DNA of 24,377 nt from a virus (IMGVR_UViG_3300025313_000008:1-24377), one strand, 5' to 3'. Counted from the stretch's first letter, positions 4,709 to 21,899 are shown. Notes: generated by a model from the letters alone, not told the origin. Numbers and translations: made by a program.

Positions 4709-4850
4709 TTTAGTATCATAAGACCACCGATCTTTATATACTATTGTGGTAATTTGATACTAAAATGTTAATGGGGTATTTGTATTATGGCACCCCTACC
4801 ACAACGAGAATTCCGAAACAGCGTTTCTATTCTGCTATTTCTTCACCCAA
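4709..4850 (-). ncRNA. candidate pseudoknotted small RNA
   Basis: Stems GAAATAGC/GCTGTTTC, GGGGTG/TACCCC, GTTGTGGTA/TACCACAAT crossing TTTAGTATCA/TGATACTAAA; G-U wobbles only on the minus strand; TATA at 4878-4871; no ORF. Confidence 0.6.
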
Positions 4851-4878
4851 GGTTCTTTAGTAACATACGTAATATAAA

Positions 4879-5058
4879 CTATACTTCTATGTAATCTGCT
4901 ATTTTGTTTTGTGACATTCCACACTTTACGCATCTCTTATCAATGAAATAATGTGTTTTACTTCCATGTTTTCTCTTTTCACACGGCGCTAGTTCACCAC
5001 AATATTTACATGTAATACTTGGCGGATTATCTGAACAGAATAAATGTGTGTGATCCAA
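4879..5058 (-). CDS. 59-aa zinc-finger micro-protein (TTG start)
   Basis: H..C..CKYCG..C...H...H...CVKCG; TTAATAT box ~24 nt upstream. Confidence 0.6.
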   Translation of the reverse strand: MDHTHLFCSDNPPSITCKYCGELAPCEKRKHGSKTHYFIDKRCVKCGMSQNKIADYIEV

Positions 5059-5085
5059 TGTTATTATATTTACTTTTCCCTAATA

Positions 5086-6924
5086 TTAACCATTGTTCCC
5101 CACAGATACCCACGAATACGATTGGTGAATATCTAAACATTTTTTCGCCAAAATACAACTCACTAAACTGTCGGGAGGATGTGAAAATTTTTTCGACTTT
5201 TTTTGAGTGGCGTCTGCACTTACATCTTCGTCTGGCTTTTCAGGTAAATCAACTCTGACTAACTTAGTCCAGTCATTTAGAATAAAGTCTAATTTATCTC
5301 TACTATCCGGATGATTTGGTATCATAAATCTAGGTCTTGTATAGTCTTCTACAAGCGGATTATCTGGATGTGGCACATATTCTCCTAAAAAGTCTACAAA
5401 CTCCTGTATCATTGTGCTTTTATCTAGTGTTACTTTTGGTACTTCATCACCATGTTCGTCTATCTTTCTTGTGAACTCTAATAGTGGTTTTGTTTCATCG
5501 CCTATTGTTCTTGAACCATAGAATTTATTTTCTCCTACACCCGCATATAATTTACCAGTTAATCTATTGGCACTACCGCTTTGTATTGCCTTTATTTGGT
5601 TTGCTCCGTATCCAAGGTCTCCCATACCTATATCACATTTTGCTACTTTAAACATCCAATTAATATATTCGGCTTGATCCATTTGATTTTCTCCGGGTCT
5701 GGGCTCAAGGAGTGCTAATTGCACTCTATTGTAGTTTGTTTGTACTTTATCACCTTCTTTTATTCTCCATACTATAAAGATAGCGATAACAGTTTGTGAT
5801 GGGCTTCCAGAACCAAAATCAACTCCCATACAAATAGCTACTTGTTTTCCATATGTATCCTTGATATCTCCTATTTGCTCCGGCGTTAATAACTGCAGAT
5901 AAGGATATGGGTTCATACAAATTTCTATCATTTCTCGTGTAATTGGTCTTCTTTCTGCTTTGTAAAAACCACCCATTACATGTGATGTATAAAGTGAACG
6001 ACTCATGTGTTTTCTACGCCATTCTATCGAATATTGTGGATCTACATCATAGTCATTAATTGCTGATTCTATTGTAAGTGGAATAGTTGGAAATATTGTT
6101 TGTGGTAAATAATAGCCATGCCAGTGTACTGCCCTTGGGTTTGTTACTTCCCAATGTCCGCGCAATACTTCTTTCAAGTATTCGCCTATAATGAGTCCAT
6201 GCTTTTCTCTCTTTAGGTGGTCTTTGACTAATCCAAATTGTAGTTTTTCTCTCCAATTAAGGTCATCATATATCCACTTTCGTTGATCTGTTCTACGCCA
6301 TAATTCCTCATATGGTGATCCACTTTCTCCACCAATTCCTAATACAGTTACCTTACCCATTGTTTGTGACATTGTTAATGTTACCCTATCAAAGTTTTGT
6401 ATATCTTGGTATTGGGCTTCATCTAACATTACATGATCCAATGATTTACCTTCTACATGTCCATATTGGTTGTGGTCTGTTACCATATACATTACTGATC
6501 CGTTCTTTAGTGATATTTCCCCGACGTTACCAAGCTTATGTCTTGGAAATAGCTTTAAAATTGGATTTGGTTCAAACGTACCATATTGTAATTTCTGCCT
6601 TGAATAACCCGATCTAGATACATCGTCATATGTTACATAACATGATTGAAATCCTGCAAATGCAGTCGTTTCAAATGCTAGAATATCAGTAGTGTAAGTA
6701 GATTTGAATATCTGTCTTCCTCCAATAATCATCTTATTTGGGTTATTATCCCTATAAATGTCCTCCCAGAAAGGAGCAACTAAAAATGACCGAGGTCTGC
6801 CTTCTACAAGTGGTCTTGCTTCTTCTATCCACCTTAGCGGTTCTGTAGGTAAAACGGGTAAATCACTTATTTGTTTGATCTTTTCCGCTAGGATCTTCTC
6901 TATATCATCCATATCATAAGGCAT
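5086..6924 (-). CDS. terL: terminase large subunit
   Basis: 612 aa; Walker A-like GGRQIFKST, Walker B VMLDEAQ, RNase H-fold nuclease MGVDFGSG...GDLGYG...HPPD. Confidence 0.9.
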   Translation of the reverse strand: MPYDMDDIEKILAEKIKQISDLPVLPTEPLRWIEEARPLVEGRPRSFLVAPFWEDIYRDNNPNKMIIGGRQIFKSTYTTDILAFETTAFAGFQSCYVTYDDVSRSGYSRQKLQYGTFEPNPILKLFPRHKLGNVGEISLKNGSVMYMVTDHNQYGHVEGKSLDHVMLDEAQYQDIQNFDRVTLTMSQTMGKVTVLGIGGESGSPYEELWRRTDQRKWIYDDLNWREKLQFGLVKDHLKREKHGLIIGEYLKEVLRGHWEVTNPRAVHWHGYYLPQTIFPTIPLTIESAINDYDVDPQYSIEWRRKHMSRSLYTSHVMGGFYKAERRPITREMIEICMNPYPYLQLLTPEQIGDIKDTYGKQVAICMGVDFGSGSPSQTVIAIFIVWRIKEGDKVQTNYNRVQLALLEPRPGENQMDQAEYINWMFKVAKCDIGMGDLGYGANQIKAIQSGSANRLTGKLYAGVGENKFYGSRTIGDETKPLLEFTRKIDEHGDEVPKVTLDKSTMIQEFVDFLGEYVPHPDNPLVEDYTRPRFMIPNHPDSRDKLDFILNDWTKLVRVDLPEKPDEDVSADATQKKSKKFSHPPDSLVSCILAKKCLDIHQSYSWVSVGNNG

Positions 6925-7562
6925 TATTCTTCACCTTTTTCCTCTTCTTCTTTTTCTTGTAGTTTGTTGATAATGTTCTGCAGTTCGGGTTTATCATAGG
7001 TTTTAGTAGTGTTTTCTTTAATAAATTGTTTTAGTGACCATACCGTTTCTGTCTTATTGGCTAATTGTGTGTATTCCTTGGTTGCTTGCATTAAAATTCG
7101 TTCATTATTCTGTTTAACTGAATGATAAATTGATTCATTTTGTAGCCTTAATCTCATTACATCGGCTTCGGTTGGATCATTTTCTCCTTCTGTTGATATT
7201 GCATTAATTTCTACATTTCTAGCATTATAATTAGATTCGGCTATTGCAATCTCTTCACTACATCTTGTTCCAATTTTTTTAAATTCTTGTAATGCTTCAT
7301 GATGATCTACTATAAATTCGCCTGTTAATACCCTATTTTCAATGAAATCTCTACCCTCTTCGCGTATTCGCTGTATATCCCTTCCTATTGTTGCTTCAGA
7401 TATATTTAGATATTCATAGTTGTTATCCTTTAACCACTTTGATATAGATACCGCTTTCTTATATCCAGCATCTTGTAATTGCTTTACTAATGAAATACGC
7501 CTATTGATTTTTTCTTCATCTGTGAGGTTATTTCCATCATTGCCCGTGCCTGTTTCCATCAT
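6924..7562 (-). CDS. putative terminase small subunit (N-terminal HTH + coiled coil)
   Basis: HTH-like 'ISEATIGRDIQRIR'; TAATG-coupled directly upstream of terL. Confidence 0.65.
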   Translation of the reverse strand: MMETGTGNDGNNLTDEEKINRRISLVKQLQDAGYKKAVSISKWLKDNNYEYLNISEATIGRDIQRIREEGRDFIENRVLTGEFIVDHHEALQEFKKIGTRCSEEIAIAESNYNARNVEINAISTEGENDPTEADVMRLRLQNESIYHSVKQNNERILMQATKEYTQLANKTETVWSLKQFIKENTTKTYDKPELQNIINKLQEKEEEEKGEE

Positions 7563-7838
7563 TAAACCATCACTATGTATTTACCATATAAGCATATATT
7601 ACCTTTTAGGCGTCACATGGGGTATTTTTTTGTGAATTATCTATTCATTAGCTTAGCCTAATTGTTATTAAGTAATTGCCGGTTTCTTAATAAAAAGTGT
7701 ATCGGAAGCAATCATGAATACCTGATTCTTTGCCAAAAACCTGATTGTTTAACAATAAAGTTATAGCCTATAGAGTTATTGCTTTAGTCTAGACTTTTAT
7801 GGACTTGTCGGCTTTGTCTTAGACAGATATCCAAAAAA

Positions 7839-7864
7839 CGTTGATCTACTGAACAAGATCAACG
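7839..7864 (-). terminator. hairpin + T6 terminator after the Zn-ribbon ORF
   Basis: CGTTGATCT-8nt-AGATCAACG followed by TTTTTT on the minus strand. Confidence 0.55.
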
Positions 7865-8017
7865 AGCACTGAATCTGTAGTATTTACACCTTCTACATTG
7901 TCTTAGTTCTCTTTCAATGAATTCCTTCTTACTACCTTTGAAGCTCTTTCTTATGTATAATTGCTCTAGTGTTATTTCCACTATTCCCCCGCAAATTGGG
8001 CATACTCTCGTAATCAT
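7859..8017 (-). CDS. 52-aa zinc-ribbon protein
   Basis: MITRVCPICGG...CRRCKY; TTTATATA box at ~8073-8066. Confidence 0.7.
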   Translation of the reverse strand: MITRVCPICGGIVEITLEQLYIRKSFKGSKKEFIERELRQCRRCKYYRFSAR

Positions 8018-8078
8018 GTGTTACACTATAAGAGTATTTGGATAATGTAGTTATGTTATACTAGTATATAAAGGATGT

Positions 8079-8183
8079 ATAGTGAATCCATTCCTCTCAT
8101 TGGGATAAATCCTTTGCCAACTCTTTCGAAGTAGTGTCTTTCGATTCACAGTTGAAGTAAGAGTCTATGGAATTACTCACTAT
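8079..8183 (-). ncRNA. candidate ~105-nt three-way-junction small RNA with a K-turn-like motif
   Basis: ATAGTGAG/TTCACTAT, TCCAT/ATGGA, CTCTTA/TGAGAG, CAAC/GTTG, TCGAA/TTCGA, GGAT/ATCC; TATA TTTATAAT at 8215-8208. Confidence 0.6.
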
Positions 8184-8232
8184 CGTTTATTATTATGCAT
8201 GTTCTCTATTATAAACTTTGTTATGATGTTAT

Positions 8233-8310
8233 ATCTGGAAAATACCCCGTTTTTCCAGATTTAAGTTCATTATGGTAAAAAACTATAATATTATGGTAAA
8301 TTACTATAAT
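8233..8310. repeat. 10-bp inverted repeat plus 2x 21-bp tandem quasi-palindromes
   Basis: atctggaaaa..ttttccagat (8233-8260); attatggtaaaaaactataat / attatggtaaattactataat (8269-8310). Confidence 0.7.
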
Positions 8311-8327
8311 AGAAAAAAAGAAAAAAA
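8311..8327 (-). terminator. archaeal oligo-T terminator
   Basis: T7-C-T7 directly after the stop of 8331..8507. Confidence 0.6.
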
Positions 8328-8330
8328 GGC

Positions 8331-8507
8331 TTAGCCGAATATACGTTTACCTAGTGTAAAGCCAAGTCCTACTAATTGTGCTCCAATGAGTACAAACAAT
8401 GTATTAGCATCGCCTATTACTCCTGTAGCAGTTCCAATTACTCCTAACAAGGTTGTTGAACCTATTAGGGCTAATGGTACGTTGTCATTTGTTCCGTTTG
8501 TTGCCAT
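8331..8507 (-). CDS. 58-aa hydrophobic 2-TM protein (missed by the ORF track)
   Basis: MATNGTNDNVPLALIGSTTLLGVIGTATGVIGDANTLFVLIGAQLVGLGFTLGKRIFG; TTTAAA box upstream, T-tract downstream. Confidence 0.8.
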   Translation of the reverse strand: MATNGTNDNVPLALIGSTTLLGVIGTATGVIGDANTLFVLIGAQLVGLGFTLGKRIFG

Positions 8508-8535
8508 TGTGAGTGTGTGTAATAGGAAGGGTAAT

Positions 8536-8769
8536 TTAAAGCTTTCTTATCACTGGTCTATGTAAAGCGTCATTTGCTATGTGTGTGTGCTTCAATACGC
8601 TAGCTTGGGCTTCTGTTTCTGTTTGCCATGATTTTCCACAATGATGAATACACCTATCATTTTTGTTATTATGACAATGAATAGCACAACCGCTTAGAAA
8701 ATTAGAACAGTCTTTTTTATCTTCAAAGTGCCTACAACTTACTTCATAATTCTTTTCTGCCATTAACAT
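8536..8769 (-). CDS. Cys/His-rich metal-binding protein
   Basis: Multiple C/H residues; TTTATATT box upstream. Confidence 0.6.
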   Translation of the reverse strand: MLMAEKNYEVSCRHFEDKKDCSNFLSGCAIHCHNNKNDRCIHHCGKSWQTETEAQASVLKHTHIANDALHRPVIRKL

Positions 8770-8793
8770 GGTTGGTTTTTACTATAATATAAA

Positions 8794-9954
8794 CTATTTT
8801 ACTGCTTCTTTAATCTTCTGAAATAATCCTTCTTCATGTGTTCCTTTAGCATAAACAACATATATCTTTGATAAAGTCTTACCTTCTGCCTTTCTTACCA
8901 CACGCCCGATACGTTGAACTATTGTGGTTTCATTCTTATTACTGGCGACTATGATTCCATGTCGTATATTTGGAACATCATAACCTAAATCAAGTGTATG
9001 AACTGTACCTATTACATGAAATGTTTTACCAAAGTTTTCAAGTATTTCTTTTCTCTTTTTCTTTCCCGTTTTTGCTGTAATGAATTCAAAACAATCACCC
9101 ATTATAGATTTCAATAATTCTAATGTTTGTATTCGCTCACAAAATACTATTGTTTGCTCATTGTTGAAGCTTTTTACCAATTCATATACTTTGTTTGCTT
9201 TTTCATGATTGTATTCCATAAGAAGCTTTCTTGCTTGAACTGCTTTGAACCACATTCCTGCCTCTCTTACACGTCCAAGCATTCTTTGTATATCTCGTGG
9301 ATTTGAAGTACCCATTGCATCGCTTAAATTCTTAATTGTGTTGCTGTATTGCGTATAAGCAATTTGACTTTCAGGTGAAAGACTAATGCTGTGATCTTCA
9401 ACTACAACTGGTGAAAGATAATCATTGCTAATAGCATCATTTAAATCTATTTCGCCTAAAACTGGACATGTTCGTAGAATTGTGCCAAATCTTTCATAGT
9501 TGAATTTATCCAAAGTAGCGGTTAAACATAACATATGTAAACCTTGATCATCAGCAATCTTCATTATTTCGCTAAATTTCTCAGCATAATCAGAAGCCAG
9601 ATGAACTTCATCGAAAACAATAAAGTCAAACTCATTGATAAGATGTAATTCATTGCTAATACTTTGATAAGTTGAAACGATTATTGATTGTTCTAGTTCT
9701 TTTTCAAGTGAATAATACGAACCAGCGACTAAACCATAGCCCTTTATTCGTTCAGTAGTTTGCTCTACCAATGTTATTCTAGGAGCAAGAAACAGTATTT
9801 TGGTTTCTTTTCGTTCTTGTAGGTATTGTTCCATGATTCCTATTGCTATTTCAGTTTTACCAGTTCCTGTTGCAAATAAGAAGGTTCCCCTTTTATTAGC
9901 ATTAAAGAATTTGTCTTTTGCATCAGTTTGATAGTCACGAAGGTTTACACTCAT
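8794..9954 (-). CDS. superfamily II (XPB/Rad25-like) DExH helicase
   Basis: LRDYQ, ATGTGKT, DEVH, TAT, LDLGYDVP, QRIGRVVR motifs. Confidence 0.92.
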   Translation of the reverse strand: MSVNLRDYQTDAKDKFFNANKRGTFLFATGTGKTEIAIGIMEQYLQERKETKILFLAPRITLVEQTTERIKGYGLVAGSYYSLEKELEQSIIVSTYQSISNELHLINEFDFIVFDEVHLASDYAEKFSEIMKIADDQGLHMLCLTATLDKFNYERFGTILRTCPVLGEIDLNDAISNDYLSPVVVEDHSISLSPESQIAYTQYSNTIKNLSDAMGTSNPRDIQRMLGRVREAGMWFKAVQARKLLMEYNHEKANKVYELVKSFNNEQTIVFCERIQTLELLKSIMGDCFEFITAKTGKKKRKEILENFGKTFHVIGTVHTLDLGYDVPNIRHGIIVASNKNETTIVQRIGRVVRKAEGKTLSKIYVVYAKGTHEEGLFQKIKEAVK

Positions 9955-10199
9955 TTGTTTTTCGCCTCATAAAGTCTTATTGCTTCACAATGTTTACAAT
10001 CCTTACTCTTAGAAAACTTCCAACCAACACATTTACAATAAAGATCAAAACTATATTTCGATTGATCTGCTCGTTCAACTTCATATGAATTATCCCCTTT
10101 AGTTGAACTTACCAACCAATGATTTGAATCTAATTCTTGAATTAAATCTTTTTCAACTAAATCTTGTGCTTGTTTCGTTTGACTTTCGCTTAATGTCAT
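9951..10199 (-). CDS. SWIM zinc-finger protein
   Basis: YEV...CKC..W......CKHC SWIM signature; TTTATATA box 24 nt upstream. Confidence 0.85.
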   Translation of the reverse strand: MTLSESQTKQAQDLVEKDLIQELDSNHWLVSSTKGDNSYEVERADQSKYSFDLYCKCVGWKFSKSKDCKHCEAIRLYEAKNK

Positions 10200-10254
10200 A
10201 CTATACCTTACCCCGTAGCGTATATAAACCCTTGTTTGTGTAAATTAACAACAA

Positions 10255-10851
10255 TCACCATATTTCTCTTAATGTATATAAATAAATATATTTTCCTTTA
10301 GTAGTTTCATATTTGGCTTCTCCATTTTTTAATGCTTTTTTTAATCTAATGGCATATGGCTTTAGTTTTCCATTGTAATATGATCTTATAGCTTTGTCAT
10401 GATATCTTCTTCCATTCCACATTATAACTCGGCTTTTTGCAGTTGTTCCTAAATTCTTAAAATGTGTTGCTTTGTAGATAGTGCCTTGATGATTAAATTC
10501 TGGATCTGCATATGATACAACTTTCTTTATGCCTGTATTATTCTTGAGCCATCTTAAACATTTGCCTATGAAGAATGATTCTGTGTTTTTAGGCGTATCA
10601 TCTATACAACAAAGTCTCCGTAGCTCAATAAGGTCTTCTTTCTTATTCACATACTTTTTCCAAGTATTAGCCATAGCTAACCAACCAAATACCATAGCTC
10701 CTATTAAATTACCATTACATTCTAACTTGAAACAATAAGTTGAAATTACACCGTTTATGTTTTTTGAATAATGCCATTTTTCTACAAAGTCCCGTATTTC
10801 ATTACGTTCACAAGGCGACACTACCATATTGCTAATACTTATTTTACTCAT
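10255..10851 (-). CDS. Mom-family (GNAT-fold) DNA adenine modification protein
   Basis: WHYS, ELRRL, PKNTESFFIG, VSYAD...HQGTIYKATHF motifs typical of Mu Mom-like proteins. Confidence 0.8.
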   Translation of the reverse strand: MSKISISNMVVSPCERNEIRDFVEKWHYSKNINGVISTYCFKLECNGNLIGAMVFGWLAMANTWKKYVNKKEDLIELRRLCCIDDTPKNTESFFIGKCLRWLKNNTGIKKVVSYADPEFNHQGTIYKATHFKNLGTTAKSRVIMWNGRRYHDKAIRSYYNGKLKPYAIRLKKALKNGEAKYETTKGKYIYLYTLREIW

Positions 10852-11005
10852 GTAATTTCCTATCTAATTCAAAACATTCACATGGTTCATTGATAATGTC
10901 AAATGAACAATCTTCTTGAACGCCTTTTATTTGTATTGTGTGTTGTGGCATGATTCTCATACAATCCTTATGTCTTTCTTTTATACAAAACCAACATTTA
11001 GTCAT
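10844..11005 (-). CDS. 53-aa Cys/His micro-protein
   Basis: MTKCWFCIKERHKDC...DCSFD...PCEC. Confidence 0.65.
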   Translation of the reverse strand: MTKCWFCIKERHKDCMRIMPQHTIQIKGVQEDCSFDIINEPCECFELDRKLHE

Positions 11006-11067
11006 TTGGAACTATCACCCAATACGATGTACCATATCTACTAATTCTCTTATATTTCCATGGAAAT

Positions 11068-11313
11068 TTAAACTCCAATTATATATCCACCTTTCTTTAA
11101 TGTAATGTTTAAACCCAATGCTACTTTTTCTGATGCTATCAATTCATTGCCATTCTTATGAGCCCATCTTACTATCCATTCTTCTGAATTGAGATCATCT
11201 GTTAATATCAATATTTCGTCATTATTTTCCATTTTACGCATTTCTATTTCTATTTTAAATAAGTTCTCCGGCACAAAAAGTCCACGCAGATCTAGTTTTG
11301 TTTGTTCACTCAT
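11068..11313 (-). CDS. TusA/SirA-fold protein lacking the persulfide Cys
   Basis: LDLRGLFVPEN vs consensus LDxRGLxCPxP; ILTDD...I.RW...G.EL pattern; probable start at ATG 11313 (ATGA overlap). Confidence 0.75.
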   Translation of the reverse strand: MSEQTKLDLRGLFVPENLFKIEIEMRKMENNDEILILTDDLNSEEWIVRWAHKNGNELIASEKVALGLNITLKKGGYIIGV

Positions 11314-11954
11314 GCTACTTTCCACTCTTTTTTCTTTGATATTTGTTGACAATGGGGGCATATTAACTTTGTTTCATTTTTAATGTAGCTTTTACGGAGT
11401 ATTCTTGAATAACTAAGGTTTTTCAAATCTGTATAGGCTTTCTCTATACTTAGTTTTCCATTTCTTACTTTGCCTTGTATTTCATTATTAGCATGTTCCA
11501 TTATGTATACCGACTTTGATACTGTTAAACCATTTACTCCTATTGTTTTTCCTATTATATCACCTACATTTCCTCTTTTTATACCGTCGTAATCTTCACC
11601 GCCATAATGTCTTTTTCGTGCAAGTTCTTTTTCTATAACATACATTTGATACATTAACTCTACGCGTTGAAATGCATTTAAATGTCTTCTTCTTACATTG
11701 CAATTTATTACATATCTTTTTTCTTCTTCTTTTGTTGCAAATTCTTGTATTCTATATTTTACTTCTATTCCCAATTCTTGACAAATTTCATATCTTGTAT
11801 ATCCATCTAGTATGAATCCATCTCTATTGATTACAATCGGATCATGTTGTCCATGTAGCATTATATCTTCTTTTAATGCCATACGTTCTTCTTTTGTAGG
11901 TCTTGGAACCAAGACTAAATATTCTTCTTTTACTTTAATTATTATTTTTACCAT
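11310..11954 (-). CDS. ParB/Srx N-terminal domain protein with HTH and C-terminal CPHC
   Basis: LKEDI..HGQHDPIVI....ILDGYTRY; NVRRRHL. Confidence 0.85.
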   Translation of the reverse strand: MVKIIIKVKEEYLVLVPRPTKEERMALKEDIMLHGQHDPIVINRDGFILDGYTRYEICQELGIEVKYRIQEFATKEEEKRYVINCNVRRRHLNAFQRVELMYQMYVIEKELARKRHYGGEDYDGIKRGNVGDIIGKTIGVNGLTVSKSVYIMEHANNEIQGKVRNGKLSIEKAYTDLKNLSYSRILRKSYIKNETKLICPHCQQISKKKEWKVA

Positions 11955-12746: not shown

Positions 12747-12752
12747 AGCTAA

Positions 12753-14007: not shown

Positions 14008-14009
14008 AT

Positions 14010-14237: not shown

Positions 14238-14270
14238 ATAAACCCTTAAACGTTCCTAGTATATAACTAA

Positions 14271-14399: not shown

Positions 14400-14401
14400 T
14401 T

Positions 14402-14710
14402 TTATCTACCATTATTACAATTTGGGTGTCTAGTTATGTGTTCATCGCAGTAATATTCGATGCATTCGTTACAGACATTTATTGCTCCTCGATTCCATTC
14501 TTTTTCACAAACTTTACAATAGACTTCTTTGATATGGTGTCTTGCACCTAATACATCATCTCTTGTTAGTTCTTCGGCTTTCTTTAATTGTCGTTTTTTA
14601 GTTAAATCTTCTCCTTTAAATCTTGGTTTGATGTTCCATTCATCTATTTCCCAATCTCGCCAGTCTTCACTACCCATTACTTGTTTAATGGATTGCTGAT
14701 ATTTAACCAT
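14402..14710 (-). CDS. AN1/B-box-like zinc-finger protein
   Basis: CKVC...CNEC...YCDEH...HPNC. Confidence 0.7.
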   Translation of the reverse strand: MVKYQQSIKQVMGSEDWRDWEIDEWNIKPRFKGEDLTKKRQLKKAEELTRDDVLGARHHIKEVYCKVCEKEWNRGAINVCNECIEYYCDEHITRHPNCNNGR

Positions 14711-15135
14711 TCTAATCTGTTCTGTGCTTGTGGTCTTTTTGATTTCACTAATGTAAACGCATCTTCTAATGTAAGTCCTAATCTAGTATGCATATACCAT
14801 GTCATAGCCAATGGACTTCGTTCCATACCAGCTCCACAGTGAACCAATAATCTTTCTTTTGCATCTATATGGTTTTGAATAATATGTGCTACTACGTCTA
14901 GTTGCACGGGCAAAGCTCTATCAACATATTCATGAATTAGATAATCCGTATCTTTTCCATCTTTATCTTTCATCATTATTTTTTCAAATCTTAATGTTAG
15001 AATAGGAATATGTAATATACTTAATGGTAATCTTTCAGGTCTAGTTTCTAAAACACATACTGCATTACCATCCCATACTAAAGCGTCTTCTAGATCACCT
15101 ATCCAGATGTCATGAATGATTTGATTTGCAGTCAT
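14677..15135 (-). CDS. dual-specificity (Cys-based) phosphatase
   Basis: LLVHCGAGMERS catalytic CX5R loop; 'DAFTLVKSKRP'. Confidence 0.9.
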   Translation of the reverse strand: MTANQIIHDIWIGDLEDALVWDGNAVCVLETRPERLPLSILHIPILTLRFEKIMMKDKDGKDTDYLIHEYVDRALPVQLDVVAHIIQNHIDAKERLLVHCGAGMERSPLAMTWYMHTRLGLTLEDAFTLVKSKRPQAQNRLEWLNISNPLNK

Positions 15136-15174
15136 ATCAATAGAATGTATATATTATTACATATTTAAACTAAT

Positions 15175-15232
15175 AGCAAGTGGGGAGTAAATTTCTAAGC
15201 ATGAAAGGTATAGGAACTCCCTTTACTTCGCT
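15175..15232 (-). ncRNA. structured RNA motif, copy B (3' of the ROT/TerD gene)
   Basis: AGC-G-AAGT-AAA-GGGAGT-TCCTA..TTTC/GAAA..ACTCCC-C-ACTT-GCT. Confidence 0.75.
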
Positions 15233-15234
15233 GT

Positions 15235-17232
15235 TTATTTATTCACTAACAGGTTTATAAATGTATCTGTTTCAAGTGCTTCTATTGAAAGATTGATACT
15301 GTTCTTTGTTGGTTCTGTAACGATTTTTGCTCCAACTTTTTCTAATACCTCATTAAATGTTATTTGGTTTGTTGCAAAGTTAGCTAAATAATCCCTTGCT
15401 AATTCTACATATTTGCCACCGCGAATTGCTATAGTGTCTCCTAATGCGGTTTCATTGAAATAGAATCTACATTCTCCATCTTTAACTGTTCCAAGTCCAA
15501 TAACTTTTTGGTTTACATCAATTACGCTTTTTACAACACATTTTAAATGATTTGGATTTATTGTGTAGTTTCTGCCAAAGCTATTAGGATGTTCTTCTGC
15601 AATCATTATTTTAAATGGTATTGGCGTACTTTTATCAAAATTAAAGTAGTTCAATGTTAGTAATAATGTGTCATCATAATCTTTGTTTATATAGAATAAT
15701 TCACTTGCTCCATTAGGTGCATCTGTAATATCCCCACTAAACAAAACGCTTCTATTGCCACTTCTGTAACTTGAATTCCAACCAATATGTCCACTGTTGA
15801 TAGCCATTGAATGTAAATCAAGATCAACTCTACGTGTTCCGTTATGGGTATCATATCTTCCATAATAATCGTCATCGTTTCTAGTTGCTTTATCAACTTT
15901 GACATTTTCCCAATATACACCAAATATCATATCCTTGCCAACTGTTATATAACTTCCACTAGGAATGTTTCCAGTAAATTGTTTTTCAGTTGCCGGTAAA
16001 GCATATGTTACATTTTCTGGAATATAGAATTCTTTTCCCTTTAAGTGCTTCAAATCTTTTGCTATTGATTTTAATACAACATCGTATACCTTTTTTGCAC
16101 CTTCAACGTTATCAAAATTCATTTCTGTAGCAAATGCCTTACCATTTCTTATTTTATACATTATGCTATTAGAATCTGACATGCGATAATTTAATGATTG
16201 TGCTAATCTAATCTTTCTAAAGATATTTACTCTATCTAGTTCTTCATTAAGTTTTACAGCACTTATTCTTCCTTCCCTTTTTAATATTCCCGTGATGTTG
16301 TTTAACAATGATTGTTTCATTGGTTTATGATATTTATCAGCCAAATGACTAATTCTATTGATTATTGCTCTCATTGCCTTATCATCAGATTTGAATGCGA
16401 GGAATAATGGTTTAAATCGTAAGAATATTTCTGCCAATCGTCTTATTCCAATACTTTTATCGTACTCAATGAATGAATCTACTATATCTACATCCGATGC
16501 TTTGATAGTTTCTATTGTCTTTTTATTTATAATTACAAGAGAATTTCCTGTAGTCTTGAATATTATTAATCTCAAAAATTCAAGAGGATCTTTTGGCATG
16601 ATATCCATTATAGTGTAAAGTCTGATTCTAACCTCTTTATTTCTAATTAATGAAACATCTTCTTCTGTTAAATCACAATATTTTGCAACTTCAATTACTT
16701 CGTCGAGACTCTTTAGAGCAATTCCACTACCAAGTATTTTTAATAGTTTTTCCTTTAATTGTTTTTTTGTGTACCCTTTAATTATGGTTAGTTTTATGCC
16801 GTCTTTGATTTCTGGCACATCTAGTTTTTCATTTGGTATGAAAACTGTGCTTTCATCATATACCCCCATTGCTTCATATCCATATGTTGTCATGTAATGG
16901 AATACTTGTTCTATCAATAATTGGAAATATGGTGCATCTCTGACTTTTTTCCATGATTTGTGAAAAGATGAATTCATCTGCTCTGGAGTAATACCAATTT
17001 CATCTGCTACTTTTTCAATTAAAAAACCTAATTCTCTTTCAGTATAATTTCCTGCTATTTCTCTCGAAAACATGAATCCATGATTTATTGTTTCCTCTGA
17101 AATATTCATTGATGGATTTTTCTTGTTTTGAGTACTTACAGGTATTGCTTTGAACAGTTTTAAAGTGCTATGAACAAGTGAGGAGTAAGTTTCACCATTG
17201 AAGTTTTTAGGAACTCCTTTTACTTCGCTCAT
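15235..17232 (-). CDS. ROT/TROVE-like helical repeat + C-terminal TerD-like domain protein
   Basis: 665 aa; helical N-terminal and middle region; C-terminal VDLDLH, GWNSSYR, FSGDITDAPNGASE motifs of TerD-like domains; family assignment recalled, not searched. Confidence 0.65.
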   Translation of the reverse strand: MSEVKGVPKNFNGETYSSLVHSTLKLFKAIPVSTQNKKNPSMNISEETINHGFMFSREIAGNYTERELGFLIEKVADEIGITPEQMNSSFHKSWKKVRDAPYFQLLIEQVFHYMTTYGYEAMGVYDESTVFIPNEKLDVPEIKDGIKLTIIKGYTKKQLKEKLLKILGSGIALKSLDEVIEVAKYCDLTEEDVSLIRNKEVRIRLYTIMDIMPKDPLEFLRLIIFKTTGNSLVIINKKTIETIKASDVDIVDSFIEYDKSIGIRRLAEIFLRFKPLFLAFKSDDKAMRAIINRISHLADKYHKPMKQSLLNNITGILKREGRISAVKLNEELDRVNIFRKIRLAQSLNYRMSDSNSIMYKIRNGKAFATEMNFDNVEGAKKVYDVVLKSIAKDLKHLKGKEFYIPENVTYALPATEKQFTGNIPSGSYITVGKDMIFGVYWENVKVDKATRNDDDYYGRYDTHNGTRRVDLDLHSMAINSGHIGWNSSYRSGNRSVLFSGDITDAPNGASELFYINKDYDDTLLLTLNYFNFDKSTPIPFKIMIAEEHPNSFGRNYTINPNHLKCVVKSVIDVNQKVIGLGTVKDGECRFYFNETALGDTIAIRGGKYVELARDYLANFATNQITFNEVLEKVGAKIVTEPTKNSINLSIEALETDTFINLLVNK
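17170..17232 (-). ncRNA. structured RNA motif, copy A (overlaps the start codon and first 21 codons)
   Basis: ATGAGC-G-AAGT-AAA-AGGAGT-TCCTA..TTCA/TGAA..ACTCCT-C-ACTT-GTTCAT. Confidence 0.75.
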
Positions 17233-17240
17233 TCCATAGG

Positions 17241-17263
17241 TTTATTAATCGCTTAATATATAC
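17241..17263. promoter_or_regulatory. divergent overlapping TATA boxes (tRNA on +, ROT/TerD gene on -)
   Basis: + TTTATTAA at 17241-17248; - TATATATTAA at 17262-17253; each roughly 20-25 nt from its start. Confidence 0.55.
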
Positions 17264-17271
17264 TTTATGCT

Positions 17272-17342
17272 ATCGGTTTAGTTCAACGGTAGAACATTGG
17301 GCTCATACCCCAAGAACCATGGTTCGACTCCATGTTCCGGTA
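17272..17342 (+). tRNA. tRNA-Met(CAT), initiator-type, with two U-U mismatches in the acceptor stem
   Basis: Cloverleaf: GTTC/GAAC, TTGGG-CTCATAC-CCCAA, CATGG-TTCGACT-CCATG; A1:U72 and three G-C anticodon-stem pairs; no encoded CCA. Confidence 0.88.
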
Positions 17343-17465
17343 TTACTTTATAAAACCATATCTCTTTAAACAATCCACACAAATTACCCCAAGAGCCGAT
17401 GCCTTTTCTTTTCTACATAGTCTACATGGTAAATCATAATCTGTTCTTTTGCCACTATCTTCCAA
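17343..17465 (-). CDS. 40-aa CxxC..CxxC micro-protein (TTG start)
   Basis: PCRLCRK...ICVDCLKR; TTAATAT box upstream; stop abuts the tRNA 3' end. Confidence 0.55.
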   Translation of the reverse strand: MEDSGKRTDYDLPCRLCRKEKASALGVICVDCLKRYGFIK

Positions 17466-17501
17466 TACTTAGTTTAGCCTAATCAATAATATTAACTTAT
17501 A

Positions 17502-17567
17502 TGGTGATATGATAGAATAGACGGATGGTACTTACGCCCTATCAGCGAATATCCTATCTTATCACCA
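17502..17567. ncRNA. long hairpin, candidate small RNA
   Basis: tggtgatatgatagaata / tatcctatcttatcacca (16/18 paired) plus inner gatgg/ctatc. Confidence 0.5.
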
Positions 17568-17581
17568 AAAATAAATTATAT

Positions 17582-17807
17582 TTACTCCTTTATAAGATTA
17601 TTGGTTTTGGGTTTAGAATATCTAAATTCTAACAAAAGAGCGATGAAGTTTTCAGGCAAATATATTGAAGGCGTGTATAGATGTTGACACTTTTTACACC
17701 ATTTTTCTATAGAAACTATATGTTGTTTCCTTAGTTTATCCACTTGGTGAAAATGATACGCTACAACGTGTTCTGCTAACTGGGATGTTCTTAGTCTTTT
17801 TCACCAT
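17582..17807 (-). pseudogene. frameshifted 74-aa ORF (extra A in an A5 run after codon 2)
   Basis: ATG GTG AAAAA G...; removing one A gives MVKRLRTSQLAEHVVAYHFHQ...WCKKCQH...; good TTTATATA box upstream. Confidence 0.5.
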
Positions 17808-17867
17808 AGTTACTAAAACAACGCCATATATAAATGTAAAAAAAAGGTAAATGAGCTACTTGCGGAT

Positions 17868-18071
17868 TTATAGATCTCCGTTTTCGTAGGCTCTGTTTGT
17901 TTGTTTAATACCTATTACAGTCAAAATGACAAATATTGCAGTTGTAACTATACCTGTTGCATCGTCATTATAATTTCCTGCTAATACTGGGGCTACTGTT
18001 TGCACAATTCCACCAACTGCACCGACTGTTAGGACTCCTAAGCTTTTTAGGGCTACTTTCCAATTAACCAT
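17868..18071 (-). CDS. 67-aa 2-TM membrane protein
   Basis: Two hydrophobic helices; own TTTAAA box and downstream T-tract. Confidence 0.8.
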   Translation of the reverse strand: MVNWKVALKSLGVLTVGAVGGIVQTVAPVLAGNYNDDATGIVTTAIFVILTVIGIKQTNRAYENGDL

Positions 18072-18118
18072 AGACCTGACTTCTTAGACGTAGTATTTAA
18101 ACATAAACCTACGCTTGG

Positions 18119-18355
18119 CTAGTCATGGCACTCATTTGACCATTCGCCATCTGTTATAACTTCGTCACATTCTCTACAATATGCCTTAATTTTCTTATCT
18201 TCTATCTTTAAAACCACAAGATTTATACCTTTATGACATATTTTACCACATTTTGTTATGCCTCCACAATGTTTTGGTGGAACATACCATCCATTAAAAC
18301 CAAGATTACCACTTAATGTATAATGTGGTTGTGTTGCTGATGTTGTGCTACTCAT
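18119..18355 (-). CDS. zinc-finger protein
   Basis: HCGG..KCG...YCREC. Confidence 0.6.
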   Translation of the reverse strand: MSSTTSATQPHYTLSGNLGFNGWYVPPKHCGGITKCGKICHKGINLVVLKIEDKKIKAYCRECDEVITDGEWSNECHD

Positions 18356-18678
18356 ACTCCCACCAACATATTTGTAACTCTTTCGAATATACTAACCATA
18401 TATTGCCCAGTCATCATGTCCATTATTCTATCTGCTATTCCGTTTTGAAATACATAATCTACTCCTTCTTTTAACACTCTTTCTTCTACTACATCAATTA
18501 TCTTAAAGACCGTTTGATTTGCAATTTGTGTAGTATTTTCTCCCGAATCTATTCCACTTAATACATCCGGCATGATGCCTTTAACTTCATTAGGAACCAT
18601 AAAATTCCATAAACTAAATGCGTTGTCGGGTGTTGGGTTTCTTATTATTGTGTTAAAATCAATCATCTTTTTTACCAA
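18352..18678 (-). CDS. hypothetical protein
   Basis: ORF track; ATGA coupling. Confidence 0.65.
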   Translation of the reverse strand: MVKKMIDFNTIIRNPTPDNAFSLWNFMVPNEVKGIMPDVLSGIDSGENTTQIANQTVFKIIDVVEERVLKEGVDYVFQNGIADRIMDMMTGQYMVSIFERVTNMLVGV

Positions 18679-18973
18679 ACTCCTTATTTTCTCTCATATA
18701 AGCCAATTCTACCTCAGACATAGTACGAGCACCAAGATAATCCAAAGTATATTGAAGTAAAACAATATGAGAACCACCTGAATGATGTTGACAATTAGTC
18801 CAATGAGACATTTCATCTGCTATTTTTTGTGCTTTTTTGCATTCTTCTTTTGTAAATGGTTTAGTTTCGTTTGCTAACCACAATGCATATGTATGAAACC
18901 AATTCTCTTTTGGTAAATGAGCCATTATTGATTTGGCATTACCAACTAATCCTTTATACAAAGTTTCAGTCAT
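18659..18973 (-). CDS. hypothetical protein
   Basis: ORF track. Confidence 0.7.
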   Translation of the reverse strand: MTETLYKGLVGNAKSIMAHLPKENWFHTYALWLANETKPFTKEECKKAQKIADEMSHWTNCQHHSGGSHIVLLQYTLDYLGARTMSEVELAYMRENKEFGKKDD

Positions 18974-19098
18974 GGATTAATTCCTCCCATTTGCGTGACT
19001 TTGATACTTCCATATACTATTGCTCCTAGTATAATACCTAATAAAAGTGTAAACTTTAAATCAATTTGTTCATTACTTACTTTCGGCTTTCCATTCAT
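18970..19098 (-). CDS. 42-aa single-TM protein
   Basis: MNGKPKVSNEQIDLKFTLLLGIILGAIVYGSIKV...; ATGA coupling. Confidence 0.6.
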   Translation of the reverse strand: MNGKPKVSNEQIDLKFTLLLGIILGAIVYGSIKVTQMGGINP

Positions 19099-19107
19099 TA
19101 TAATAAG

Positions 19108-19554
19108 TTAGTGAATAGGTAATATATACCTATAATATTCTCCACTAATTACCTGATTTGCCATGTAGTCCCACAGTCTTTTATACTTAATCTTAAATCC
19201 TTTCTTATGTTTACTTGTTCTATGGTGTGCTAATTCATGGCACATTAATTCTATTAGTGCAAGATTTCCATATATTTCATGCCTTTCATTATGTCCAACA
19301 TATTTTGTTGTATAAACCTCTTGTTCTAACAAAGTCTTCTGCTTGATAACTACTCTATGTGGTTTTGCATTTGAAAAATATGCGTAGCATCCACTCATGT
19401 TACCTCGTCCTTTTCTAAGCAATCTGCTATTTTCTTTACTAAATGCAATTATTGTAGTTGGCGTAATCTTCATAATATCATTTGGAAACTTCTCTTTGAG
19501 TATTATAGCCGTTTTGAAACAAATGGCAATTCCTTTATTGATTTTATTGTTCAT
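19108..19554 (-). CDS. SprT/YgjP-like HExxH zinc metalloprotease domain protein
   Basis: LMCHELAHH....H.KGF; probable start at ATG 19554 given the TTTATATA box upstream. Confidence 0.7.
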   Translation of the reverse strand: MNNKINKGIAICFKTAIILKEKFPNDIMKITPTTIIAFSKENSRLLRKGRGNMSGCYAYFSNAKPHRVVIKQKTLLEQEVYTTKYVGHNERHEIYGNLALIELMCHELAHHRTSKHKKGFKIKYKRLWDYMANQVISGEYYRYILPIH

Positions 19555-19600
19555 ACATATCTTATATACTATGCGGTATATAAATGTTTGTTGATACAAA

Positions 19601-19772
19601 ATGTGTGGCTGGATAGTTACTCCAGTCCTCTTGTCTTTGTTAAGGTTTTATTTGTCATCCAAGTGTGCAAACTCACACCACCACACATATTATATATTGT
19701 TGCAGAGCCTAATAAATTTACTTCGGATAAGGACACCGCATCTGACACGCAGATCTCTGACTCTCTCACAAC
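19601..19772 (-). ncRNA. two adjacent multi-stem RNA modules (candidate small RNA or RNAs)
   Basis: ATGTGTGG/CCACACAT enclosing GTGTG/CACAC and CTGGA/TCCAG; TTGT/ACAA and CAGAG/CTCTG enclosing ATCTG/CAGAT and CGG/CCG; TATA at ~19797-19791. Confidence 0.5.
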
Positions 19773-19818
19773 ATAGGTTATGTGTAGTTGCTTATAAAAA
19801 TAAAAAATGAAAGAAGAC

Positions 19819-20082
19819 TTAAATTAGTCCTTCTTTTTCGTATTTGGCTCTTTTGACTTCATAATCTGCAAGTTGTTTTCTTCGTGTTTCAAGATTCTTA
19901 TCAATACCTTTTAGGGCTTTGTTAATGAATGCTTCATTAAGACCTTTTCCTAAATATGATTCAGTTTTTACGCGTTCTTTTTCTAGGCTTGCAATATTTT
20001 CTTTAATGAATTTAATCTGCAGATCTATTTGCTTTCGAGTCCCCTCTTTTGCTCTTTCTGAGTGCTTTGCCATAATAAGCAA
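19819..20082 (-). CDS. coiled-coil hypothetical protein (likely start 20073)
   Basis: ORF track; TATA spacing favours ATG 20073. Confidence 0.75.
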   Translation of the reverse strand: MLIMAKHSERAKEGTRKQIDLQIKFIKENIASLEKERVKTESYLGKGLNEAFINKALKGIDKNLETRRKQLADYEVKRAKYEKEGLI

Positions 20083-20106
20083 TGGATGTAATTAGTATAT
20101 AACTTT

Positions 20107-20349
20107 TTAAAGCTTTCTTCGTCCTGTTCCTCTTCCAGTAGACACATATCTACCTTTTGAAGATGTTTTACTGCCCTTTTTCTTTTTCAAGTCCTTTACT
20201 TTTACTTGTCTGGTTCCTCTATCCACAGATACTGTTCCTTCGTCATCTGCTTTATCAAGTGATTTGTCTAAGAATTTTTTGAATTCTTTACCAGTCCAAT
20301 TTTCGGGGTTTTCAGGTAATTTGCTCTTTTTGGTTCCTCTATTTGCCAT
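20107..20349 (-). CDS. small Lys/Arg-rich protein
   Basis: Basic composition; TTTATATA box ~24 nt upstream. Confidence 0.75.
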   Translation of the reverse strand: MANRGTKKSKLPENPENWTGKEFKKFLDKSLDKADDEGTVSVDRGTRQVKVKDLKKKKGSKTSSKGRYVSTGRGTGRRKL

Positions 20350-20371
20350 ACTATCCTATAACACACCATCC

Positions 20372-20554
20372 TTATATAAATTTAAAAAAATGAAATTTGC
20401 AGATCTTACATCTGCTCACGATTAGCCCTTTTGTGTTCTTTATTTCATACACTTGGTGGCTATGTCCTCGTGCTTTTCTTCGCACATACCGACGATATCG
20501 TAAAATTTGTCGTTTTTTACGAGTATCAGTATATGGTACTCTTGTATAAGGCAT
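20372..20554 (-). CDS. very basic small protein with HxH..CxxC
   Basis: ORF track. Confidence 0.6.
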   Translation of the reverse strand: MPYTRVPYTDTRKKRQILRYRRYVRRKARGHSHQVYEIKNTKGLIVSRCKICKFHFFKFI

Positions 20555-20608
20555 TATGTATGACTCATACTTTTCACATAATTACTATACAGTGGTTCTA
20601 TTTAAATT

Positions 20609-20747
20609 ACGTGTTCTTAAAGTGGCTCAGTTATCGAACAATTTATACAGCCTTCATCGCCACAACACGTTTGATAAAGATACCACGTTGCTCTTTATCA
20701 GATCATCGGGCTATTAACCCTCGGAAATCTCCCCCTTCTTGAAACCG
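20609..20747 (-). ncRNA. candidate small RNA with a box C/D-like K-turn
   Basis: TGATAAAGA/TCTTTATCA; ACGTGTT/AACACGT; GTGGC-GAT-GA-AG..CT-GA-GCCAC; TATA TTATATAA at 20774-20767. Confidence 0.6.
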
Positions 20748-20778
20748 TCTGTCCTACCACGACATATTATATAACGTA

Positions 20779-21762
20779 TTACTTGTATATAATTGTAATG
20801 TTATGGTTTTTATGATCTGTTACTTCAGGCTTAAGAATTACTTTTCTTCCACAATTCTCACATTTAAAATTGAGAGAGGATAATTTTATTTTATTGTGTT
20901 CACATAAGTCTTCTATATCTTTCCAAAAAGTGTCATCGTATTTCAATTTTACTTCTTTTAAATCAAATTCCTCTAAAAATTCTTTAAATCTGATTTTACT
21001 AACATCCGCGTTCATTACACTTTGTACTTTTTGTTTTATTACAACTTCAGGTAATGGTGGAAATACCAATGTTTGATTAAAATGACTTAGATGATATAAT
21101 AGTTCATCTTCCTTTAAACCAAAACTATGTCTCATTGCTACTCCAAGCGTATACACACTGTAATCTCTTTCTCCTTCTTTTACACCTTTTAAAATTTCAA
21201 CAACTCCTTTCTTTATACGTTCTGGATTGAACCCATGATTCGATAAACTATTAATGAAGCCATCCAAATCTATATCCTGTATATCCAATGTGCTTGAAAT
21301 TATTTTATATTCTTTACCAGTCTCTGGATTGATTGAACCCGGAATTAATACGTAAGTTCCTTGTGATTGAATATCTATGCGTTGACCTTTATCATTTTTT
21401 AACCTCAAACTTGTTTCAGGTAATTTTCCCTTTGGTTTAACACATACATGATATCCTTTTCCAGTTTCAACTATCAATGTTTCTTTTTTTCTTTTTTCCC
21501 AGTCATCAAAAACTTTTGATAACTCACGATCATCAAGGTCTATAACTACTAAATTACCCGATGACGTACCACAAATAACTGCTCCATTTTGTCCTTCTTT
21601 AATTTCCATATTACATTTTTCAGTTTGAAATATCTTCCAACCGGGCTTACCAGTTTGTGGGTTTATTGGCATATTTGTTTCATCTGGAAGTTTAGACTTT
21701 GGTTTAAGTGGTATTACATTTAGTCCTTTTTCCCTGTAAAGTTTTACAAACCCCTGTATCAT
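20779..21762 (-). CDS. bifunctional primase-polymerase (Prim-Pol + PriCT-1-like) with C-terminal Zn motif
   Basis: GLNVIPL...SKLP, LVVIDLD, ETGKGYH, IDIQSQGTYVLIPGS, EGERD, PPLPE. Confidence 0.9.
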   Translation of the reverse strand: MIQGFVKLYREKGLNVIPLKPKSKLPDETNMPINPQTGKPGWKIFQTEKCNMEIKEGQNGAVICGTSSGNLVVIDLDDRELSKVFDDWEKRKKETLIVETGKGYHVCVKPKGKLPETSLRLKNDKGQRIDIQSQGTYVLIPGSINPETGKEYKIISSTLDIQDIDLDGFINSLSNHGFNPERIKKGVVEILKGVKEGERDYSVYTLGVAMRHSFGLKEDELLYHLSHFNQTLVFPPLPEVVIKQKVQSVMNADVSKIRFKEFLEEFDLKEVKLKYDDTFWKDIEDLCEHNKIKLSSLNFKCENCGRKVILKPEVTDHKNHNITIIYK

Positions 21763-21796
21763 ATTACTACATTTATGTTAAGCCTTAATATAAATT

Positions 21797-21899
21797 GATA
21801 GGGCTCCACGGACAGAGGCACCTATCTGACAATGAAATCACGGAAAAATTTCTAAACCGTTGTCCAGTGGTCAGATGCTTTGCATGACAGCATTTGCAA
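21797..21899 (-). ncRNA. candidate pseudoknotted RNA upstream of the primase
   Basis: ATCTGAC/GTCAGAT, ACGG/CCGT, GATAGG..CTC/GAG..CCTATC whose 8-nt loop TGTCCGTG pairs with upstream CAC(T)GGACA; TATA at 21929-21922. Confidence 0.6.

Follow-up and report, generated by a model that had tools for sequence, protein, structure and literature searches.

Small structured RNA elements conserved between the genes of a tailed archaeal virus from soil

Does a virus of archaea carry, in the gaps between its protein genes, a set of small structured RNAs that are each transcribed from a promoter of their own? The question is raised by the opening 24,377 bases (IMGVR_UViG_3300025313_000008:1-24377, hereafter the window) of a 98,399-base IMG/VR virus record with an estimated completeness of 83%. 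An initial annotation of this window had proposed six folded intergenic elements (E1 to E6), each starting downstream of a TATA box, as the unannotated RNAs of an archaeal virus. Comparison with related genomes indicates that the virus has at least five, and probably seven, unrelated small structured RNA elements:

4709–4850, minus strand: E1, a candidate RNA between the terminase and zinc-ribbon genes and the gene at 4347–4670
8079–8183, minus strand: E2, a multi-helix RNA of 105 nt, closed by a stem of its own 5′ and 3′ ends
17502–17567, minus strand: E3, a hairpin RNA of 66 nt with a conserved apical region
17744–17808, minus strand: E7, a seventh candidate with a terminal stem, GGUGAAAA/UUUUCACC
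19601–19772, minus strand: E4, a two-domain RNA of ∼170 nt in which a long-range helix closes the second domain
20609–20747, minus strand: E5, an RNA directly 3′ of the stop codon of the primase-polymerase (PrimPol) gene, in a long form (6 genomes) or a short form (3 genomes)
21797–21899, minus strand: E6, an RNA directly before the PrimPol promoter, for which a pseudoknot is proposed

The source of the record is a 98-kb tailed archaeal virus of soil. Its minus strand holds 154 of the 164 open reading frames (ORFs; greedy ORF picking). The large terminase (TerL, 5086–6924) has 24% identity with a Bacillus phage TerL, and the other recognisable proteins are a helicase, a Mom-like protein and PrimPol (20779–21762). 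Genes preceded by a gap carry an A-rich stretch and TTTATATA ∼28–31 nt 5′ of the AUG. This is the archaeal B recognition element (BRE)/TATA promoter of leaderless messages, and sigma-70-like sites are not in excess (81 counted vs. 90.9 expected). On these two grounds the virus is of archaeal type, and the proposal that such a virus carries a conserved, unannotated set of structured RNAs holds, five of the six elements being backed by covariation. A marine habitat, which had also been considered, was not borne out, as the metagenomes in which the virus DNA occurs are of soil and sediment (19 studies). Reads of four DNA runs showed that strains of the type of this virus (G000, its whole genome) coexist with strains of the type of a close relative, G001.

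G001 (also L010; 80.7 kb, genes ∼84–91% identical in DNA) is the only relative in IMG/VR. A profile of PrimPol homologues drew 80 metagenomic loci, and nine loci (L012 and L014–L021), with PrimPol 51–86% identical in protein, make up the same-clade set. Against G001, every element is an island of conservation with divergent flanks. In the distant genomes the cores are conserved at least as well as the adjacent PrimPol coding sequence: identity is 0.95 for E6 and 0.92 for E4 vs. 0.72 for PrimPol in L014, 0.82 for E3 and 0.83 for E4 vs. 0.66 in L020, and 0.78 for E6 vs. 0.67 in L016. The sequence conservation of E5 is lower, with its helices kept.

Base pairs were counted on MAFFT alignments, and slid pairing partners served as the control. 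Conservation of structure in relatives, the lack of which had been named beforehand as one of the results that would speak against the proposal, was found for E2 to E6, with 91.5–98% of cells paired vs. 25–60% when slid; the relatives concerned have a PrimPol of just 51–66% protein identity. E2 (3 sequences, 34 pairs) had 98% of cells paired vs. 34–46% when slid, with 7 compensatory pairs; the corresponding values were 97.5% vs. 25–60% with 6 compensatory pairs for E3 (5 sequences, 25 pairs), 92.9% vs. 29–50% with 8 (13 cells) for E4 (6 sequences, 26 pairs), and 92.3% vs. 31–40% with 6 for E5 (9 sequences, 24 pairs). For E6 (6 sequences, 22 pairs, pseudoknot included) they were 91.5% vs. 30–45% with 4 compensatory pairs, 2 of which lie in the pseudoknot helix CCAC(U)GGACA/UGUCCGUGG. 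With compensatory pairs and no conserved reading frame, E2 to E6 are structured non-coding RNAs by sequence comparison. The ratio of G·U to A·C over all counted pairs is 39:6, a count somewhat biased by the derivation of the structures on the minus strand; this ratio therefore points to the minus strand, which is also that of the genes, as the strand that folds. A covariance model of E3 (R2) scored 123.8 bits on the minus strand and 35.6 bits on the plus strand.

Folding energy gave a less even picture. Minimum free energy (MFE) z scores were −3.08 for E1, −2.1 for E2, −4.85 for E3, −1.9 and −2.8 for the two halves of E4, +0.25 for E5 and −0.85 for E6, and control gaps without conservation gave −0.25, −0.31 and +1.35. 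The folded character ascribed to all six is strong by this measure in E3 and E1, and E5 and E6 do no better than shuffles. Because the energies are mixed, the case rests on the comparative evidence. The GC enrichment likewise held in part: among windows of equal length, E4 to E6 rank in the top 1%, E3 reaches the 95th percentile and E2 the 90th, and E1 gets no further than the 81st, with element GC of 0.35–0.46 vs. 0.33 for the genome. In other respects the initial annotation proved accurate. All six elements are present on the minus strand at the coordinates listed above, with boundaries that match the conserved cores within a few bases and, for E2 and E3, coincide exactly with the terminal stems; the lack of similarity among them was confirmed by sequence comparison and by the E3 and E6 covariance models; and ∼8 of 14 gaps over ∼60 nt, said to be most of them, hold an element, a tRNA or a paired motif.

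The architectures differ from one element to the next. The ∼105 nt of E2 are conserved in G001 and L014 between flanks that cannot be aligned. The long-range helix of E4 pairs UGUGUGG (19681–19687) with CCACACA (19602–19608). The sequence of E6 fits a pseudoknot, with a proposed helix a (21870–21874 with GUCAG), helix b (21861–21870 with 21806–21814), hairpin c and hairpin d (21821–26 with 21797–21802), and its 16-mer at 21833–21848 is invariant. E1 is, from its sequence, a probable structured RNA. Its 3′ half (4773–4709) holds a long, conserved hairpin, UUUAGUAUCA...UGAUACUAAA. In G001, 4773–4671 is ∼97% identical, 4850–4774 is non-homologous and replaced by unrelated sequence, and two changes would allow G·U pairing, on the minus strand alone. 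A pseudoknot stem a for E1 (4805–4797/4751–4743) found no support, its 5′ strand, by eye, not being conserved in G001. The sole resemblance of E1 to the phi29 packaging RNA, which a phi29-like packaging ATPase requires and whose interlocking loops form a ring, is its place beside the terminase gene; this virus has a classical TerL, and G001 has not kept the 5′ half of E1. E7, compared in two sequences, shares 92.6% identity with its L020 copy, where one change is G·U-compatible, and is absent from G001; its MFE z score is −1.4, and a 23-codon ORF overlapping it shows non-synonymous changes only (4 of 4).

Promoters were scored with a position weight matrix (PWM) trained on 30 gene promoters of this genome, by which 20 minus-strand places and no plus-strand place score ≥14. 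The boxes before the elements are as follows:

4869–4878, minus strand: E1 TATA, TTTATATTAC, PWM 7.2, 29 nt 5′ of the core and kept in G001 despite differing downstream sequence
8206–8215, minus strand: E2 TATA, 26–30 nt 5′ of the core in 3 of 3 genomes, preceded by the hairpin and T-run terminator of the upstream gene
17587–17596, minus strand: E3 TATA, CTTATAAAGG, 28 nt 5′ of the hairpin in 4 of 5 genomes; homology with G001 starts exactly here
17824–17835, minus strand: E7 TATA, PWM 11.5
19790–19800, minus strand: E4 TATA, preceded by the hairpin (19816–19829) and T-run terminator of the upstream gene
20766–20775, minus strand: E5 TATA-like box immediately 3′ of the PrimPol stop codon, with a window PWM score of 10.5
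21919–21930, minus strand: E6 TATA, PWM 9.2; in L016 and L021 it lies 26 nt 5′ of the core, directly behind tRNA genes

The first T of the TATA box stands 26–30 nt 5′ of the first conserved base in E1 (1 of 1 genome), E2 (3 of 3), E3 (4 of 5) and E4 (6 of 6). This is the spacing of TATA to AUG in the leaderless genes (28–31 nt), and equally high PWM scores occur in 0–5% of 30-nt control windows inside genes. In E4, a TATA block that is invariant in 6 of 6 genomes is followed by 25 nt of free variation, after which the conserved core sets in. E6 shows the 26-nt spacing in L016 and L021, 2 of 6 genomes; the window and L014 have 44–54 nt, with a variable extra 5′ hairpin between. With starts predicted from the conserved 5′ ends, the elements are thus laid out as archaeal promoter units, in which TATA lies ∼25–30 nt 5′ of the start, and E5 is inconsistent with this layout. 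The claim that every element has its own TATA box stands for E1 to E4 and, in two relatives, for E6, and it is doubtful for E5.

All elements stop a few bases short of the promoter of the next gene. Downstream of E1, E4 and E6 the genes have their own canonical TATA 29–31 nt 5′ of a leaderless AUG, and the promoter of the gene behind E4 (PWM 21.7) is the genome's best. Hairpin and T-run sites 3′ of genes at 7833–7864, 8300–8330 and 19816–19829 (all minus strand) resemble intrinsic-type terminators. Outside the window, at 94566 and 95280 of G000, two near-identical and very strong promoter boxes (AAACAAGCATTTATATACCCCACA) lie 714 nt apart; the box at 94566 is 381 nt from the next called gene and adjoins a 208-nt gap (94186–94393) that could be the site of another RNA.

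The elements travel as cassettes of promoter plus RNA. In the window 9 kb separate E2 from E3, but in L014 E2 abuts the E3 TATA. In L020, E3 is followed by U6, tRNA-Asp and tRNA-Val, which replace a small zinc-ribbon gene. E3 and E6 abut tRNA genes in L016, L018, L020 and L021, and L021 has 20 tRNA genes in 12 kb around PrimPol, two of which end just before the E6 TATA. In L016 and L018 a class II tRNA has an insert of 56 nt in its anticodon loop, consistent with an archaeal host. In the relatives this region is an “RNA island”:

L021 3730–11695, L016 1574–1716, L018 2396–2538 and L020 4633–4783: tRNA arrays and insert tRNA

What the RNAs might bind is suggested by three k-turn (kink-turn)-like motifs:

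8118–8154, minus strand: E2 k-turn-like hairpin, CAAC-NRU-GA-AUC ... CGAAA-GA-GUUG
20622–20663, minus strand: E5 k-turn-like motif 2, GUGRY-GAU-GA ... N-GA-GYCAC, within the outer helix ACGUGUU/AACACGU
20701–20724, minus strand: E5 k-turn-like motif 1, GA-(covarying hairpin)-(G/A)AU-GA

In the E2 hairpin both GA dinucleotides are invariant, and the 3-nt bulge (UGU/UAU/GAU) and the apical loop vary. In E5 motif 2 the canonical (C) helix covaries (G-C to A-U, C-G to U·G), with GA dinucleotides invariant in 6 of 6 genomes. Motif 1 is present in all 9 sequences, with hairpins of GGGUU/AGCCC, GAAC/GUUC, GGG/CCC or GGGUCA/UGACCU and an unclear non-canonical (NC) helix. The E2 hairpin and E5 motif 2 match the k-turn sequence signature, and their NC helices are weak. 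L7Ae, a protein universal among archaea, docks on k-turns, and the E2 and E5 motifs would fit the consensus of its binding site. No gene for L7Ae was found in the virus. The decoy and sponge functions suggested for the elements are unsupported; the k-turn signatures of E2 and E5 are the sole evidence that bears on the proposed functions, and they would fit L7Ae.

The k-turn RNAs described for archaeal L7Ae include box C/D and H/ACA small RNAs (sRNAs), RNase P RNA and the leader of the L7Ae mRNA (PMC5539422, PMC6298567, PMC4245976). Like these, E2 and E5 carry the sequence signature of a k-turn (Watson-Crick C helix, 3-nt bulge, tandem G·A/A·G), with a C helix that covaries (E5) and a bulge that varies. 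Unlike the archaeal L7Ae-bound sRNAs, they have no conserved D box, C′/D′ motif, guide or ACA pocket, and their size and architecture differ. Box C/D sRNAs, 50–70 nt long, have a C box (RUGAUGA) and a D box (CUGA) at their ends, an internal C′/D′ and a conserved guide of 10–12 nt. A box C/D reading of E5 was rejected: GCGAUGA...CUGA is present in the window, but the “D box” is AUGA, GCGA or AGGA in relatives, the spacer is unconserved (22–46 nt), and the Rfam score for sR49 is 16.6 bits vs. a 50-bit cut-off. In 5 of 6 genomes E4 has an ACA 3′ of its first domain, but this domain has a 22-nt loop and no upper stem, pseudouridylation pocket or k-turn, and an H/ACA assignment was dropped.

Bacterial and phage Y RNAs (Ro60/Rsr) resemble the elements in being small, closed by a 5′/3′ stem and sometimes beside tRNA-like modules. 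A Y RNA/Ro60 particle was rejected: the neighbouring 665-aa gene product has no TROVE link in Pfam, PDB sequences or a protein atlas, Rfam gave no Y RNA match, and G001-type strains without the 665-aa gene keep all of the RNAs. The VIPR vrRNA reading fell on the absence of tandem GGY/NN repeats, and hammerhead and tRNA-like readings were also rejected. Complementarity between elements was confined to matches of 8–9 nt (E 0.1–0.8) that are not conserved.

Database searches yielded no known family. Rfam matched only a tRNA in the whole window (E≤1) and, for 17400–21950 and the relatives (E≤10), nothing near the gathering score except tRNAs. GenBank viruses and phages gave no DNA match, and no match was found in 185,579 genomes or, with the PrimPol profile and an E6 pattern, in genome contigs. 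A scan of IMG/VR for the 16-mer of the E6 core returned 49 loci, all by chance except G001. The covariance models R1 (E6) and R2 found nothing but their training copies in 600 kb (39 distant PrimPol loci together with the whole of G000 and G001), and the two families are therefore single-copy.

On balance, we think it somewhat probable that the elements are independent single-copy genes, on the gene strand, for small (∼65–170 nt) protein-binding RNAs. To the conservation, covariation, strand, non-coding nature and promoter spacing that were observed, this reading would add transcription, independent 3′ ends, protein partners and a function. Host RNA polymerase would start each RNA ∼26–30 nt behind its own TATA, as for the leaderless viral mRNAs, and the transcript would fold compactly, its helices presumably kept by selection. 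Because the RNAs are located before the next gene's own promoter, they would be units separate from that gene's message. They would most likely act as protein-bound particles (RNPs), the k-turns of E2 and E5 docking L7Ae. E5 and E6 bracket the PrimPol gene and would probably act in or on the replication module.

Several points weigh against the reading as independent RNA genes. No RNA run was among the sequencing runs that hold the virus. The comparison covers 3–9 sequences per family from a single clade, and the shuffle control ignores relatedness. E1, the weakest of the six, has a single relative (G001) for comparison, and the folding energies of E5 and E6 fail to beat shuffles. The E5 box is weak or absent in L017, L019 and L021, so that an independent E5 promoter is doubtful. 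The small gene behind E3 has a start codon other than ATG and lacks a good promoter. No clear T-run terminator was found 3′ of any element in the window, and read-through into the next gene is possible. The k-turn assignment is drawn from sequence alone.

The best surviving alternative, possible though in our judgement doubtful, is that the elements act in cis, as leaders (E6 of PrimPol; E3 of the zinc-ribbon gene or tRNA operon; E2; E4) or as a 3′ untranslated region (UTR; E5), and control stability, translation or promoter use. Such roles would include 5′-terminal hairpins that block 5′ exonucleases, translational control through a k-turn and L7Ae, and transcriptional interference with a downstream promoter. 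There is precedent in archaeal L7Ae, which is described as regulating its own mRNA through a k-turn in the 5′ leader (PMC5539422, PMC6298567), and the missing T-run terminators would suit it. The alternative is strongest for E5, which lies 3′ of the PrimPol stop in 9 of 9 genomes aligned, regardless of the next gene, lacks a good TATA in three, and may be the 3′ UTR of PrimPol. It is strong also for E3. The unannotated gene behind E3 (17343–17465, minus strand) encodes, in 40 codons from a TTG or ATT start, a zinc-ribbon-like CxxC...CxxC peptide, and is conserved behind E3 in L014 and L019; E3 may double as a 5′ leader, for the zinc-ribbon gene in four genomes and for tRNAs in another. It applies to E6 as well, which ends 2 nt before the PrimPol TATA and overlaps the BRE position in 6 of 6 genomes and could interfere with that promoter. 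Other observations fit a role in cis poorly. The genes behind E1, E4 and E6 each have a leaderless promoter; a long isoform with a leader would be unneeded and, under leaderless initiation, poorly used. What lies downstream of E2 and of E3 varies from genome to genome, and E6, found before PrimPol in six genomes, is missing from that place in L017–L020, where PrimPol occurs without it. E2 and E7 are closed by terminal stems at whose ends conservation stops.

We see only a slight chance that the elements are DNA-level signals, namely a replication origin or single-strand initiation site (E5, E6), a packaging signal (E1) or binding sites of a viral regulator. Plasmid pRN1 has as its origin a stem-loop region that lies downstream of the prim-pol gene, and E5, too, is a structured element directly behind a PrimPol gene; E5 and E6 flank this initiator-type gene, E1 lies just behind TerL, and hairpins in single-stranded DNA would likewise covary and tolerate G·T. 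The pRN1 origin acts as DNA; in E5, by contrast, the k-turn signatures are of RNA type and the G·U pairs are strand-specific. A DNA signal would also leave unexplained the fixed TATA spacing of 26–30 nt in several unrelated elements, and the G·U to A·C ratio favours a transcribed sense strand. Repeats or iterons were not found, and E2 and E3 are far from PrimPol.

That the elements are small protein genes missed in annotation, or folds arising by chance in AT-rich spacers, is very improbable: a 52-codon ORF (21785–21943) does overlap E6, a 50-codon GTG ORF overlaps E4, and the energies of E5 and E6 resemble those of shuffles, but covariation and conservation are far above controls, the unconserved gaps do not fold, and the E6 frame shifts 2–5 times relative to the window within the core across five relatives and is therefore not coding. 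The invariant 16-nt stretch of E6 is unlike codon-wise drift, the only long frame in E4 has mostly non-synonymous changes and a stop in G001, and E5 has indels of 1, 2, 4 and 8 nt, which are not multiples of three. By contrast, the ORF at 17343–17465, a positive control for this test, differs from G001 by synonymous changes only (4 of 4).

A more specific model can also be drawn, to which we give a small chance. In it, E5 and E6 would be dedicated RNA partners of viral DNA replication, and the others (E2–E4 and E7) would form a viral set of k-turn and hairpin RNPs that capture host L7Ae and other RNA-binding proteins. E5 and E6 might prime or template PrimPol initiation as RNA, or control the copy number or timing of the initiator in the manner of ColE1 RNA I/II.

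Some features of the neighbourhood are recorded here in their own right. Small Cys-rich (zinc-ribbon-type) genes at 4879–5058, 7859–8017 and 21936–22121 (minus strand) adjoin E1, E2 and E6. At window 8018–8078, between E2 and the zinc-ribbon gene, G001 has ∼200 extra bases with three copies of TTCTTTATATAAT (tandem promoter-like boxes), and it carries a 1.8-kb insertion between window 21949 and 21933. The 14-mer TTAGGCTAARCTAA, with a small hairpin TTAG...CTAA, is repeated in intergenic sequence at 7648–7661 and 17469–17482 (minus strand); at ≤2 mismatches it has three matches vs. 0.46 expected, and one copy is just 5′ of a small zinc-ribbon gene. The segment 15137–17344 is a cassette of the 665-aa gene and a plus-strand tRNA-Met, which diverge from one palindromic TATA (17252–17263); it is absent from G001 and from G001-type strains of the same soils, as seen from the joint 15136→17345 in two runs. 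Between E4 and E5, 20107–20349 and 20372–20554 encode very basic small proteins (isoelectric points 10.4 and 11.1), which are possible nucleic-acid binders.

Structured RNAs encoded by phages and by eukaryotic DNA viruses are well known. The small stable RNAs of phage T4 (species 1 and 2, rnaC/rnaD) lie in a tRNA gene cluster and are processed from a tRNA precursor. The elements described here are likewise virus-encoded, structured and non-coding and, in relatives, stand among viral tRNA genes; they differ from the T4 RNAs in having archaeal promoters and in forming several unrelated families, each with its own TATA, and they show no sequence or Rfam relation to them. The adenovirus VA RNAs, Epstein-Barr virus EBERs and herpesvirus saimiri HSURs are RNA polymerase III or Sm-class transcripts with PKR, La, L22 and Sm as partners. 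In the model proposed here the elements, known from sequence, would resemble these as abundant, compact, independently promoted viral RNAs that bind host proteins. For tailed viruses of archaea, our literature search found no report of conserved RNA families supported by covariation, and non-coding RNAs go unmentioned in a 2025 survey of the virome of Nitrososphaeria.

Five to seven unrelated families in one clade would be new RNA families for Rfam, with sharp boundaries, recognisable promoters and protein-binding motifs that can be tested. They also raise the question of why two conserved RNAs bracket a replication initiator. Should the specific model of replication partners and host-protein capture be true, it would be the first time that an RNA-based module for replication or host takeover is described in a virus of archaea. 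And if the RNAs are expressed, the annotation of archaeal viruses omits a whole class of genes.

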